57,943 bases of DNA. Source: a virus (taxonomy: Duplodnaviria > Heunggongvirae > Uroviricota > Caudoviricetes). How positions within the stretch are numbered: position 1 is the first letter of the stretch; every line of letters begins with the position of its first letter. The stretch is from positions 1 to 57,943 of the IMG/VR virus record IMGVR_UViG_643348545_000013; one strand, 5' to 3'. The position numbers are program-made. This document shows positions 45,001-51,000 of the stretch, one piece after another.

Positions 45001-48000
45001 TCTGCATCCGGATACAGGCCTCGCTTCCGGCAATACTCGTAAACCATATCAACTAGCTCGCTGACGTTTGGCAGTCCGGCGATAACGGATGCTTCTTCCC
45101 GGCACCATGCAACAAACTGCCCGGGTGATGGAAGAAATGGTCGATTCTGCCGACGGGCTACGCGCATTCCTGCGTTAACCTGTTCCATCGAGGTGATCCC
45201 GTTTTCCCGGAAAGCCAGAACCCACTGGCGGCGGATTTCATTCAGTTCGTTCTGGTCCCGGTTAGCCAGACTCGCCGGGAAAGTTGCCAGTAACTGGCTG
45301 AACACACCGTTGATGATCTGCGCTACCTGTTGTACCTGCGGCTTTTCGTCGTACTGTTCCGGCATGTTGTTGGCGATCCGACGCATCTGCTCACGGTCAA
45401 AGTTAACCATCTGTGCGGCGATGTTTTTCATAAATCCACCCCGTAAATCCAGTCAGTGTTTGTCAGGTCGAGTTTTGGTTTGCTGGCTGTCACGCCTGCC
45501 TGTTGCTTGTTACGGTTGATTTCGAGCTGGGTCCACTTGTCGCGGAGTTTGGCCGGACTTAGCACGTTACCGGACCAGAAGTTGTCCTGGCATGCCCAGC
45601 GGAACAGCACGCACATGTCGCGGTGGTTACGTCCGTCACGTTCACGCATCAGGCGGATATCGTTAGCCCACCCTGCAAAATTCGGTTTTCTGGCTGATGG
45701 TGCGATGGTCTTCACCATGTCAAACATCCACTCTGCGGCGGTCAGGTCTTCTGCTGTTCCCCACTTGCTGCCGCTCTGAATTGCAGCATCCGGTTTAACC
45801 ACAGAAAGATCGTTTTCTGGCTGGTCAGAGGATTCGCCAGAATTCTCGGACGAATAATCTTTTCTTTTTTCTTTTGTAATAGTGTCTTTTGTGTCCCCCT
45901 GTTTTGAGGGATAGCAATCCCCTAATTTGAGGGATGTTTTATCCCTCGTTTTAGGGGGGGTTCCCTCGTTTTGAGGGATGTCCCTCATTTTAGGGGAACC
46001 TCCCTCGTTTTGAGGGATGCACCATTCTGAGATGTTTTTATTTGGTCCAAACATGCCGCCTTGCTGCTTGATAATATTCATTCTGACGAGTTCTAACTTG
46101 GCTTCATTGCACCGTTTGACAGGTAACTTTGTAATCTCGCTAAGTTGAGAATCGGTGATTCTGTCCATTGGTTTATTCCACCCATAGGTTTTACGCAGAA
46201 TGGCAAGCAGCACTTTAAACTGTCGCTTGGTCAGATCTGCGCCTGAATAAGCCTCAATCAGCATATTTGATAGTCTGGCGTAACCATCATCGAGATCTGC
46301 CACATTACGCTCCTGTCCGGCAAAGTTACTTCTGCCGAAGTTGAGTATTTTTGCTGTATTTGTCATAATGACTCCTGTTGATAGATCCAGTAATGACCTC
46401 AGAATTCCATCTGGATTTGTTCAGAACGCTCGGTCTTGCACACCGGGCGTTTTTTATTGGTGAGTTCATCAAGCGCATACTTAAAAGCCCTGCTAATCGG
46501 ACTGATGTCTGATGCCATTCCGAAAGCACACAAGACCGAAGCAATAAATCTCCAGTCCGTTCTGCTTATCTTCGATTCATGACAGCCAATCATCTTTGCC
46601 AGACCGCGCTGGGTAAGCGTTGACAGGTTGATAAGTAAATCTGTTTCTGCGCGATCAACGTCGCGCTGTGATAGTTTGCTGTAACTTGTTTGTTCCATTT
46701 CTTAAGATTTCCAATAGTGAATAGTTAGTTGAAAGGTATGCGTGGAAACGCATATGGCCTTAGTTGGTCAGATATCTTGGGACTCGCTTTTCAGCGACGT
46801 AGGACGAATGTCCGTTGTTACAAAGAGCGGGTACTGCTTAGGCGGCTTTGTTACTGGATGGAGGGAAAACATCATCCAAAGAACATTGGCACCCTAACTT
46901 CCTGAGGCCTTCTACGATCTTTCGGCAATCGTTAAGTCTAGGAGTACGGATATTCAGCTCATAGTTGGCGATGCGGGATTGCCCCCAACCAATTGCCGAA
47001 GCCAGTACAGCTTGCGAAACTCCGATTTTTTTTCGCTGCTGGGCAATTTTGTTCATTGCGGTCTCCCTAGTATTAATCACACACCCATTACACACAATTT
47101 GTGATTAACAGTCAACCTCAATTCGTGTACAGAGTTCAATCACGTTGCGTGTTACATTTAAAGGATGAAAACGATGCATGAAATTATCGGGGAAAGGATC
47201 AAGTCCCTTAGAGAAGCTAAAGGACTTAGCCAGGCTCAATTGGCCAAGCTTTGCGGCTGGGCTGCGCCTTCACGCCTGGGGAACTACGAGTTAGGAACAA
47301 GAAAGGTTAGCGCGGATGACGCGCTGGTTCTTGGGGCGGCACTCGGCGTATCTCCGGCAAAAATAATGTTTGGCGAGGATTCAGACGCTGTATTTCGCCA
47401 ATATGAGTACCCGTTATTTTCTTCAGTGCAGGCCGGGCCGTTTTCGGAGGTTGGAAGCTACACAGCAAGCGATGCAAAGGCATGGGTCCCAACGACCACA
47501 AAAGCCAGCGAAAAAGCTTTCTGGCTTGAGGTGAAAGGCCATTCTATGACTGCGCCACAGGGCGTAAGGCCGAGTTTTCCTGAGGGTATGCTGATACTCG
47601 TTGATCCGGCCGAGCCGGTAGAGTCTGGGGATTTCTGCGTGGCTTCTGCAAATGGTGATTCAGAGGCAACGTTCAAGAAGTATGAGAAGGATGCAGGGGT
47701 TAGTTACTTGGTTCCATTGAATCCGGCATACAGAACCCTGGACTGCGATCACACATGCCGCATCATAGGCAAGGTAGTTAAGGCTCAGTGGCCTGAAGAG
47801 ACGTTTGGATGATGGATGGTCGCAGAGATGCTCGTAGAGCATACAGCGATGCAGGAGAATTTATGGCACTTAATTTAGAAAGAATATCTTTTATAACCCC
47901 ATTTGATAGCAGCGAAGAACCCAACCAACCGACGCTTAATTTTACATGCAATGAATTTCCTGCGCGGCTATCGATTGATTTCAGGGTTGGTATGATCGGG

Positions 48001-51000
48001 TTGAAACCAAATTCAAGATATAATTTGGGTATTATGGTAATCCCCGCGCACCTAATTATAAAAAAAGGTGAGGAAATTCAATTCCCTGACGGCTCTTCGG
48101 AATCAGTTTCACTTTTCATCGATACGAAAGATAGCCATTTTGAAACAGGGGTTGGCGGACAGGTAATAGTAACATTGAAAGAAATTAGGGTCCCAGCTAA
48201 AGGGCTGTATAGTGTTATAGGGATATTGCAAGATAATGAAGACCCTAAAAATGAACTTCATAAAAATGAATCATTTTTCACCGTAGAGCTATTATGAGTG
48301 ACGACAGTAATTTAAATAATCATGGAAAGCAAGACACCAACATATCTGAAAGCCGGAGGTTGAAGGTTGTTGGCGGTTCCGATTTTGAGGCTGAATTTGA
48401 TAATTCTCCCACCAAGGTGCAAAATAATTACATAAAACCGCCACAAACGGAGGAAGAAGTGGGAACGATCAGCAGAGAGGAACTTGATGCTCGCTTAGCT
48501 GCTAATAAAGCAGAGATGGAGTCTATTGCTTCTTCCATTAGGACTGACATGGCTCTATCTCGTGAAAGCGTTAATGTCCAATTTGCATCACTTAATGCAG
48601 CCATAAGCTCTCTATCGTCCAAGATCGATGGAAAGATGGATAGCGCTGCTGGCGATATAAAAGCAATTAATGGGAGATTCGAAGGAATTCAAGGACAAAT
48701 AACAGGGGTTAATACCGCAATTAGTGGTGTTCAGTCGGGTATTTCTATACGATTAGCCATTTTTAGTGTCATTATCGCTGTAATAGTTGCGATTCCCGGG
48801 CTGGTATCAGCTTTAAAGTCAGACCACGCACCTTTGCAACAGCCTTCCACTTTGCAAGCGCCGCCACAAAATACCCAGCCAACAGACAACAAAAAAATCA
48901 CTCCCCAGCATTAACGCATTAACCCGGCCTCAGCGCCGGGTTTTTTGTTGCCTGCACATAACTATCAGGACAGCACCTGCCAGCCAGCCCAAGCCTCTGA
49001 TTAAATTACTATAATTCTTAATACAACTCCCATATCCCGCCATCTCGTCACCACCTACTTCGCTCGTTTTTCGAACTTTTCAGCACACCATCCTGCTGTT
49101 TCCCCCGCCTTAAGTAAGCAAACCCATCGCGGGGAAAACTATTTACACAAAAAAATCATACACATAACGTGTCACACCCTTATTTTACACATTTTGTGAT
49201 TGACCATTAAATCACAATATGTGACTATTATTTCCATCAGCAGGACGCTGGTAGCCAAACGGAAAAGATTGGCAGGCTCTTTAAACAACGTCGAACACTC
49301 GACTACGTGGCTGAAAAGCCAGATCACCCAACCACATAAGCTGTGGGATGCAATGCCGAAGCAACCGTCTCAGGAGGAGCTTCGAGATTGCATCGCCAAA
49401 GTTTATTCGGGAGGAATCTATGTCCAGAAAAACAGAATTTAAAGGCACCGCAGCTTCTCGCCGTAGAGCTCGTCGCGCAAACCTGCAAAGTCAGGAGTCG
49501 ATTAGCTCCGACAAGCTACACAGGCCAACCCCTTCACGAGTGGTCTTGCAATGCAAGCGCAAACCAGCAATGAGAGCAGAAGTTATAACTCTGACAACGT
49601 TGACCAGAAAATATGAAGGTTCAACTTGTCTTCCAAACGTAGCCATTTACGCTGCAGGCTACCGTAAATCCAAACAACTGACAGCAAGATGACTTGTGTT
49701 GGTCGCCAGAAAATGAAATTAGGCAGCAAACCACTTATTTGAGAGGAATTAATATGTCATCAATCCGCTTAACTACGAGAATGAAAGAGGAAATCGCTCG
49801 TAACGCTTTAATTAAGTCCGGGGTGTTCACTGAACTTGAAGAAGTAACAAAGTTAAAGAACCAGCTTGCACTTGACGCCAGAGTTATTGCGTTTGGCGGG
49901 AAAAAGAAAACCGAAGAAGTGGACCAGCTGGCATCAAAGTTAATGGCTGCAAGTGAGGAACTTCAAAAGCTGGGATGTTCATTTTACTCATGCGATGTCA
50001 GTTCATGTTCGATTTATCTGACTGTATCTGGAAGAAGGGTTGGCTGGCATTCATACGGAAAAGACGGCAACGGTGAAGATATATTGCTCCCTACCCCCGA
50101 CAAAGATAAGTGCATGTTTGACGCAGAACACAAAATAACAAAAAGGTTTGATGAAATCTGCGCATTGCAACAAAAACTTGAAGCCAGGAAAAAGGATATA
50201 GAATCAAACGTATGGGCTGCTTTGAACTCAGTCACAACAGTTAAGCGACTTATTGAAGTTTGGCCTGAAAGCAAAGAGTTGCTACCAAAAGAAGCAGATA
50301 AAGCAAGTGCAGCACTTCCTGCTTTACGGGTAGAAGATTTGAATAAGATGATTGGACTTCCTTCCGAGGCCGCATAATCGGCCTTTATTTTTGGCATAAA
50401 CAACAGAATAAACACTGCACTGTGTATTCATTCCAACGAGTGAATACACGGAGCAATGTCGCTCGTAACTAAACAGGAGCCGACTTGTTCTGATTATTGG
50501 AAATCTTCTTTGCCCTCCAATGTGAGGGCTTTTTTATATGCATACCAATAACGCTTCACTAGAGGCGTTTTCGTTATGTGTAAATAAATAAGGAGCACAC
50601 CATGCAATATGCCATTGCAGGGTGGCCTGTTGCTGGCTGCCCTTCCGAATCTTTACTTGAACGAATCACCCGTAAATTACGTGACGGATGGAAACGCCTT
50701 ATCGACATACTTAATCAGCCAGGAGTTCCCAAAAATGGATAAAACACTTATGGCTATCCAGACTAAATTCACTATCGCCACTTTTATTGGTGATGAAAAG
50801 ATGTTTCGTGAAGCCGTCGACGCTTATAAAAAATGGATATTAATACTGAAACTGAGATCAAGCAAAAGCATTCACTAACCCCTTTCCTGTTTTCCTAATC
50901 AGCCCGGCATTTCGCGGGCGATATTTTCACAGCTATTTCAGGAGTTCAGCCATGAACGCTTATTACATTCAGGATCGTCTTGAGGCTCAGAGCTGGGCGC

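Follow-up and report, generated by a model that had tools for sequence, protein, structure and literature searches.

The virus record IMGVR_UViG_643348545_000013 of IMG/VR (Caudoviricetes) comprises 57,943 nucleotides (nt), and this whole stretch, hereafter the window, is a near-complete lambdoid prophage in inverted orientation. Directly downstream of its CI-type repressor gene lie two tightly coupled genes, A and B, which occupy the rexA-rexB position of phage lambda. The pair is a mobile, horizontally shuffled, AT-rich accessory ('moron') cassette, and B is the conserved component of a family found across Enterobacterales in which the upstream partner is exchangeable, a property missed by an earlier reading of the window made without database searches (the sequence-only reading). 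On the grounds of position, architecture, and modular variation, A-B is tentatively regarded as a lysogen-expressed, membrane-acting phage-exclusion module resembling Rex, a reading that is possible rather than probable.

The rexA-rexB slot and its boundaries

Onward from cI, the gene order is gene A, gene B, an intrinsic terminator, operator-like repeats with a pL-like promoter, the antiterminator gene N, and a gene of the Nmad5 family. The sequence-only reading had called a CI-like repressor directly upstream in the same orientation and a strong terminator directly downstream, and both calls hold. The repressor gene has Peptidase_S24 and helix-turn-helix (HTH) matches (Table 1), and the terminator, with a stem of eight pairs at 48921-48942, six of them G-C, followed by a T run, is a homolog of lambda tImm (lambda 35827-35795, 94% identity over 34 nt) that is annotated as Timm in phage HK542. 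The repressor is a natural hybrid: its HTH domain at the N-terminus is distinct, whereas the S24 domain at the C-terminus is lambda-CI-like and closes with the same ...QWPEETFG; identity to lambda cI is 69.6% over positions 47402-47638 and 96.6% over the final 29 nt. Those 29 nt and the 34-nt terminator are the linkers, common to the window and lambda, that bound the cassette.

Phage HK542 has lambda's own cI, operators, and cro, and matches lambda at 99.2% identity as far as the cI stop (lambda 37226), where homology ends. It returns at lambda 35827, in tImm and two bases from the end of rexB, and the intervening 1106 bp with A-B replace 1398 bp with rexA-rexB, exactly from cI stop to tImm, which confirms the proposal that the cassette fills the rex slot. 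The window's cassette is 99.4% identical at the DNA level to the corresponding segments of HK542 and HK244, whose immunity regions are deposited as EF120458 and EF120457 with both genes listed as hypothetical. The HK542c105/c104 and HK244 05/04 genes, like PHROG 5893 and 5820 (both of 'unknown function'), are the same genes as A and B. Describing the system as undescribed was therefore an overstatement; because databases have listed the genes as hypothetical since 2007 and the slot is a recognized hotspot, the cassette is uncharacterized rather than unseen. PMC8585504 and PMC7067206, in passages citing Degnan et al. 2007, present the interval from cI to N as a hotspot of mosaicism from which lysogens express accessory genes, among them the abortive-infection genes rexAB and bstA.

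The marks of a moron of this interval occur together in A-B: mosaicism, conserved linkers, AT-richness, a shared terminator, and association with differing immunity types. The exact immunity region of the window was present in two IMG/VR contigs (L021 and L022) and, at ≥80% of its length, in none of 5426 complete E. coli genomes. Some E. coli prophages (L023-L034, for example L024 at 3158-3499, and CP024155) have a gene for a 113-amino-acid (aa) DUF3024 protein (phrog_3467) between cI and A, and since this gene is inserted in only a subset, the slot gains cargo stepwise.

The terminator scan found no plus-strand terminator between cI and A, and an internal promoter scan of the cassette returned a single weak site, inside B. 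Together with the shared lambda tImm, this layout implies co-transcription with the repressor, as had been suggested: transcripts from the repressor promoters (pRM and pRE) would read through into A-B and stop at tImm. Because the pair would be read from the repressor promoters and ended at tImm, its products should be made in lysogens.

Composition, coding status, and selection

The GC content of A is 0.377 and that of B 0.432, giving 0.419 for the cassette compared with 0.519 for CI, 0.481 for N, and 0.512 for the window, and the cassette ranks among the lowest 1.8% of 1136-nt windows. The AT-richness noted in the sequence-only reading is thus confirmed, although the sharp contrast exists only on the repressor side because the Nmad5-family gene after N is equally AT-rich.

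Comparison of A and B with orthologs from Klebsiella, Citrobacter, Cedecea, and a viral contig gave saturated synonymous divergence (pS 0.69-0.84), with nonsynonymous divergence (pN) of 0.11-0.43. Because pS is saturated while pN is only 0.11-0.43, A and B are real genes, and the aligned sequences indicate strong purifying selection on both. The same selection makes it hardly credible that the pair is decaying or selfish cargo of no use to phage or host. The rarity of the cassette in E. coli (0.9% of complete genomes) and the existence of some truncated B variants would suit such cargo, but in several families of Enterobacterales the two genes keep their order, their coupling, and their position.

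A hydrophobic minus-strand open reading frame (ORF) of 37 aa at 48930-49043, MAGYGSCIKNYSNLIRGLGWLAGAVLIVMCRQQKTRR, was considered as a third component and rejected. It converges on the terminator and is confined to loci of the same immunity type; as its end, moreover, simply reads the terminator stem in reverse, it is probably no gene.

The product of gene A

Gene A encodes a protein of 144 aa and is preceded by a strong ribosome-binding site, AGGAGA. As the sequence-only reading had stated, no stop interrupts the frame back to an ATGA overlap with the CI stop; the ATG there, at 47809, is an alternative start that would give 162 aa. The shorter product is the real one, since homologs in other genera have 143-144 aa and the phrog_5893 profile, a full-length match to A (expect value (E) 3.3e-50), covers residues 21-161 of the 162-aa form and leaves its first 20 residues unaligned. 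A is predicted to be a cytoplasmic seven-strand beta-sandwich and represents the type I partner of B. Its earlier description as soluble and without a recognizable motif agrees with the lack of any hydrophobic segment and of any match in Pfam, NCBIfam, or PADLOC. An exhaustive search of 1.84 billion representatives with the A profile gave 23 matches, mostly stand-alone proteins of 136-153 aa; a few repetitive giant proteins among them look spurious, and matches of the profile to TRPM7 among PDB sequences were likewise judged spurious.

The product of gene B

Gene B encodes 206 aa and, as had been read from the sequence, its ATG overlaps the TGA of A (ATGA). The profile of phrog_5820 matches its full length (E 3.4e-76, residues 1-201). 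The AlphaFold2 model of B has two helices, at residues 61-142 and 150-174, and disordered ends. The heptad register is unbroken from residue 59 to 153 and runs straight into the sole hydrophobic segment at 154-174, so the coiled coil followed by a single C-terminal transmembrane helix that the sequence-only reading proposed is recovered by structure prediction, heptad analysis, and Kyte-Doolittle hydropathy. Ile, Val, Phe, or Met occupies the a and d positions of the last eight heptads, with Gly, Asn, or Gln at flanking positions. Because beta-branched residues occur at both core positions, the sequence suggests a trimer or tetramer.

As no signal peptide is present, B is expected to be tail-anchored in the inner membrane, with a predicted distribution of ~150 residues in the cytoplasm and ~30 in the periplasm. 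Tail-anchored proteins of comparable layout include ElaB, YqjD, and YgaM, and a membrane-tethered cytoplasmic scaffold of this kind could serve lysogenic conversion unrelated to phages, altering host physiology (stress tolerance, envelope homeostasis, or growth arrest, for example) to the lysogen's advantage. Such a role would suit the tail-anchored layout with its helical cytoplasmic part and the lack of any matching defense model, and the position and operon anatomy indicate only that the proteins are probably produced in lysogens. This explanation is nevertheless unlikely: B matches neither Pfam DUF883 nor any other host-physiology family at E up to 1, the family is limited to accessory positions of prophages, and swapping of partners is more typical of conflict systems.

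The presumed periplasmic tail carries a QPIIIQVPQ motif in most homologs, and this motif is degenerate in the copy of the window. A conserved motif on that side of the membrane, in an inner-membrane protein encoded by an immunity operon, would be in keeping with superinfection exclusion at the entry step without cell death, in which the short tail of B or its membrane bundle blocks genome translocation, in the manner of P22 SieA, T4 Imm, or HK97 gp15, and A acts as a chaperone or stabilizer. That the motif has degenerated in the E. coli copy, that predictions place ~150 of the 206 residues of B and the whole of A in the cytoplasm, and that an exchangeable cytoplasmic partner is hard to account for make an entry block quite unlikely; nor does either protein resemble the annotated superinfection-exclusion (Sie) families in PHROGs.

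Beyond its PHROG, B gave only sub-threshold matches, to other segments that combine heptads with a hydrophobic stretch. No PADLOC model matched at E up to 1, no NCBIfam or Pfam family scored above threshold, and a fold search with the model of B gave no match. Assignment to Pfam Baculo_PEP_C (PF04513) was rejected at 19.1 bits and E 0.0014, against a gathering threshold of 38 bits; some homologs have precomputed matches to this family, a resemblance that reflects the heptad pattern and implies no function. Comparison of the B profile with PDB sequences gave only weak matches of the coiled-coil type (SmhB, HA2, reovirus sigma-1, and ApoE). In the ClyA-family alpha-pore-forming toxins SmhB (E 0.014 over 58 profile positions), MakE (E 0.007), and MakA (E 0.015), weak sub-threshold matches pair the Gly-containing heptads and hydrophobic helix of B with the membrane-inserting head. 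These reach 14-19 bits compared with cut-offs of 320-360, only ~60 residues align, and B lacks the rest of the toxin fold, so the resemblance to a ClyA-type head may be compositional.

An exchangeable upstream partner

The partners encoded upstream of B belong to at least four unrelated families, none with a known function. One is the A-type beta-sandwich (143-144 aa), two others comprise proteins of 92-99 aa, and the fourth is a Zn-ribbon protein of 120 aa with the pattern CxxC...CxxC, phrog_4293. A further partner, a 149-aa protein from Salmonella, fits none of the four, and hhalign did not support its being a distant homolog of A. Between the two families of ~95 aa, which may be related, hhalign gave E 0.023.

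The N-terminal region of B follows the partner. Mean identity in this region reaches 37% among B proteins that share a partner type and 17% where the types differ, and two motifs are specific to one type each, L[KR]V[VI]GG[ST]xFEA to A-type partners and L[KR]AVPNCGSGIDK to Zn-ribbon partners. The core of B, by contrast, does not follow partner type and, on these alignments, is the constant component of the family: cores whose partner is a Zn-ribbon protein share 66-68% identity with the E. coli core, compared with 58% in Cedecea and 38% in Citrobacter, where the partner is of the A type. Because the N-terminus tracks the partner and the core does not, the unit formed by the partner and the N-terminus of B is exchanged against the unit formed by the coiled coil and the membrane helix.

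This co-variation fits binding of the partner to the N-terminus of B, and partner swapping on B is a modularity typical of conflict systems. The entries for the PHROGs and the HK phages do not record the exchange of partners or the association of the whole family with repressors, and the exchange appears not to have been described.

Distribution and genomic contexts

The sequence-only reading had proposed that the same pair be sought in the rex slot of other lambdoid prophages, and it is there in HK542, in HK244, and in 51 of the 5426 complete E. coli genomes, where the repressor ahead of it varies. A search of 5.8 billion proteins with a profile of the B core returned 98 clusters. All belong to Enterobacterales, with Escherichia, Xenorhabdus, Morganella, and Pectobacterium among the genera, and none has a name beyond 'hypothetical', save two that bear the Pfam title Baculo_PEP_C. 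Truncated variants of B exist, such as P0002 and P0114.

Genomic contexts were surveyed at ~60 loci drawn from NCBI, ENA, Logan contigs, 41 IMG/VR viral contigs, and one Providencia IncC plasmid, and representing E. coli, Klebsiella, Enterobacter, Citrobacter, Cedecea, Leclercia, Salmonella, Yersinia, Pectobacterium, and Providencia. Every locus with a readable upstream region, except L050, has a small gene that overlaps B or ends ≤20 nt before it, and in all but four loci the pair follows a prophage repressor, either directly or after one small gene. Judged by their N-terminal (immunity) domains, these repressors represent no fewer than eight groups, among them lambda CI, hybrids with a lambda-like C-terminus, other S24 repressors (229-253 aa), RacR-like proteins (125-172 aa), and an HTH protein of 133 aa.

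Tight coupling, a small soluble gene in first place, constant co-inheritance, and a position beside switch genes are features that a prophage maintenance or regulatory module would also have, either as a toxin-antidote pair with B as membrane toxin and the upstream protein as antidote, or as a modulator of lysis-lysogeny or induction. A role of this kind is very unlikely. No homology to known toxin-antitoxin families was found, and phages of lambda immunity work with rexAB, with A-B, or with neither, according to Degnan et al. 2007 as cited in later work, so the slot is not part of the lysis-lysogeny switch. An addiction function would in any case not exclude a function in defense.

Two further observations concern these contexts. 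The conjugative Providencia stuartii IncC plasmid NZ_OY979224 (L063, 4748-6471) contains a lambdoid prophage with a repressor, a 100-aa partner, and a B-like protein that is 34% identical to that of the window. Several loci outside E. coli have a convergent minus-strand gene of 55-89 aa right after B (Table 1), and the one in L057 encodes a DUF2767 protein (E 2.1e-36).

A possible exclusion mechanism at the membrane

The favored reading of A-B as a lysogen-expressed exclusion module can be set out as a mechanism, in which expression in lysogens, binding of A to B, oligomerization and topology of B, and action against phages are all inferred steps. B would sit in the inner membrane by its one C-terminal helix, with an N-terminal portion of ~150 residues in the cytoplasm, and its 14 continuous heptads would probably form a parallel homo-oligomeric stalk that continues into a transmembrane bundle. 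A would probably dock on the variable N-terminal ~55 residues of B as an exchangeable specificity or regulatory subunit. On sensing a cue of infection, this cytoplasmic partner would switch B, the membrane would be compromised, and the infection would be aborted. An abortive mechanism of the Rex kind is favored, since the component that varies is a cytoplasmic protein and very little of the total protein mass lies outside the cytoplasm. The wider proposal, that the B family as a whole constitutes a new modular abortive-infection system of Enterobacterales prophages, in which an oligomeric tail-anchored effector has a docking peptide that is swapped along with unrelated, cue-tuned sensors, must be considered doubtful.

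Several results weigh against the exclusion reading. None of the 5027 defense-protein models of PADLOC-DB v2.0.0 matched A or B at E up to 1, and among the PHROGs annotated for exclusion, immunity, or defense there was likewise no match, the only matching groups being of 'unknown function'. The accessions of the two proteins occur in no paper, no reports of a phenotype or of expression were found in the literature, where HK542 appears solely as a test phage, and the DefensePredictor supplements contain neither these accessions nor fragments of the peptides. The model of B has low overall confidence (predicted local distance difference test, pLDDT, of 59), and a single-pass tail-anchored protein is not an obvious channel. 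The co-variation of the partner with the N-terminus of B could also arise from linkage of adjacent DNA, with no contact between the proteins. The cassette is rare, being limited to HK542 and HK244 among 50,697 phage records and to the small share of E. coli genomes given above. Finally, four loci (L004, L052, L055, and L056) have the pair near tail genes or prophage ends, and because it sits there away from repressors, repressor linkage is not obligatory.

Comparison with known systems

RexA-RexB of lambda is the closest counterpart of A-B in layout. Both pairs occupy the slot from cI stop to tImm co-oriented with cI, exact allelic replacements of one another in HK542 and HK244, and in both a gene for a soluble product is followed by one for a membrane product. 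RexB is a polytopic membrane protein with four helices, whereas B has one C-terminal helix (154-174) and a long cytoplasmic coiled coil; RexA has 279 aa, and A is a 144-aa beta-sandwich. Exclusion by RexAB extends to T4 rII and other phages and is accompanied by a loss of membrane potential. The products of A-B show no similarity in sequence or profile to Rex proteins (BLASTP; hhalign probability 0.1-0.2%; no Rex Pfam family), consistent with the statement in the sequence-only reading that neither protein is Rex-like, and the partner of B is exchangeable among unrelated families. A-B is a positional and organizational analog of RexAB that lacks both its homology and the topology of RexB.

In Salmonella prophage BTP1, the gene for BstA immediately follows that of the repressor, whose promoter drives it; its position is conserved across many prophages, and the protein acts by abortive infection (PMC8585504). 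A-B shares with it the position directly downstream of a prophage repressor, conserved across prophages. BstA is a single soluble protein that localizes to sites of phage DNA replication (PMC8585504). Unlike A-B, it has no membrane component, and it shares no Pfam or PADLOC model with A or B.

Small inner-membrane proteins of phages or prophages such as P22 SieA, T4 Imm, and HK97 gp15 are expressed to exclude other phages; they are products of single genes with little cytoplasmic mass. A and B have no similarity to any annotated PHROG of this kind.

Neighboring genes and other cargo in the window

The features of the prophage and of the cassette are collected in Table 1. The operator-like repeats correspond to two inverted repeats (I1 and I4), and the pL-like promoter, read from the sequence, is putative. 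The conserved part of N begins at Met25 of the 114-aa ORF, and CP043295 annotates an N gene of 273 nt. Among Rfam families, the cIII thermoregulator was the sole match near the cassette.

Table 1. Coordinates of the repressor region, the A-B cassette, and flanking genes in the window (final rows: convergent genes after B in other loci)
Feature	Position	Strand	Details
Tail and head genes	5-28 kb
O	45428-46366	−
cII	46399-46698	−
Cro-like gene	46838-47095	−
CI-type repressor, 215 aa	47165-47812	+	Pfam Peptidase_S24, E 3.9e-26; HTH_3/HTH_31
Left boundary, conserved cI 3′ end (...QWPEETFG*)	47785-47813	+	lambda 37254-37226, 96.6%; mosaic homology breaks here
AGGAGA ribosome-binding site of gene A	47853-47858	+	4 nt before ATG; read from sequence
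Gene A, 144 aa	47863-48297	+
Gene B, 206 aa	48294-48914	+	ATG overlaps TGA of A (ATGA)
B residues 1-57, variable disordered N-terminal region	48294-48464	+	sequence type follows upstream partner type
B residues 58-153, 14 unbroken heptads	48465-48752	+	heptad analysis; helix 61-142 in model; invariant columns
B residues 154-174, predicted single transmembrane helix LAIFSVIIAVIVAIPGLVSAL	48753-48815	+	Kyte-Doolittle 19-residue maximum 2.71; helix 150-174
B residues 175-206, Pro/Gln-rich tail, predicted periplasmic	48816-48911	+	alignment; disordered in model
Intrinsic terminator, right boundary of cassette	48921-48948	+	terminator scan; lambda tImm homolog
OL-like operator repeats and putative pL-like promoter (TTGACC-17-GACTAT)	49161-49228	+	inverted repeats I1 and I4
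Antiterminator N	49420-49692	+	Pfam N_peptide, E 1.2e-31, residues 23-114
Red/Gam/cIII	50.6-52.7 kb
Integrase	56657 onward
Convergent gene after B, L009	7020-7217	−
Convergent gene after B, L016	4788-4955	−
Convergent gene after B, L018	4640-4846	−
Convergent genes after B, L038/L040/L042 and L057		−

Directly after N, at 49694-50377 on the plus strand, is the gene for the Nmad5-family protein (PF18757, E 1.5e-68; GC 0.418, AT-rich like the cassette), in the region where lambda has ral, sieB, and ea10. In HK542, whose N is followed by a hypothetical gene of 624 nt, the aligned segment covered the first ~110 nt of the window's gene at 100% identity. This gene may represent further accessory cargo of the early-left operon.

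Other cargo lies on the minus strand elsewhere in the prophage. At 13072-14235, within an AT-rich island (12801-14700) and adjoining the gene for minor tail protein L, the prophage carries a moron for an outer-membrane porin, a full-length gene (Porin_1, E 1.8e-139). AT-richness in the window peaks in the island at 1401-2900 (GC down to 0.365), the site of a gene (832-2022) for a 396-aa protein with a YadA-like membrane anchor of the trimeric autotransporter type. The protein encoded at 36060-38057 (665 aa) combines DUF1737 and DUF6645 with a SASA sialate-acetylesterase domain and resembles the NanS-p-type esterases typical of lambdoid prophages of pathogenic E. coli. An antirepressor-type gene (Bro-N/P22_AR_C) is located within the tail region, at 10108-11022.

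Significance

RexAB is the oldest known abortive-infection system, and its mechanism is still poorly understood. Lambda and HK542 form a natural experiment, in which promoter, repressor, and terminator are the same and the cargo alone differs, and HK542 was used in laboratory plating assays in 2026. A-B is a well-defined candidate with a ready control, yet one among many uncharacterized candidates of its type.

If A-B excludes phages, a tail-anchored coiled-coil membrane protein would be added as a new type of effector, the family would illustrate clearly how sensors can be swapped on an unchanging effector, and the case for the site after the repressor as a general defense locus of temperate phages would be strengthened. 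Should the doubtful reading of the whole family as modular abortive-infection systems prove true, A-B would be a functional analog of RexAB built from entirely different parts. If A-B does not exclude phages, the rex slot would also hold other functions expressed in lysogens.

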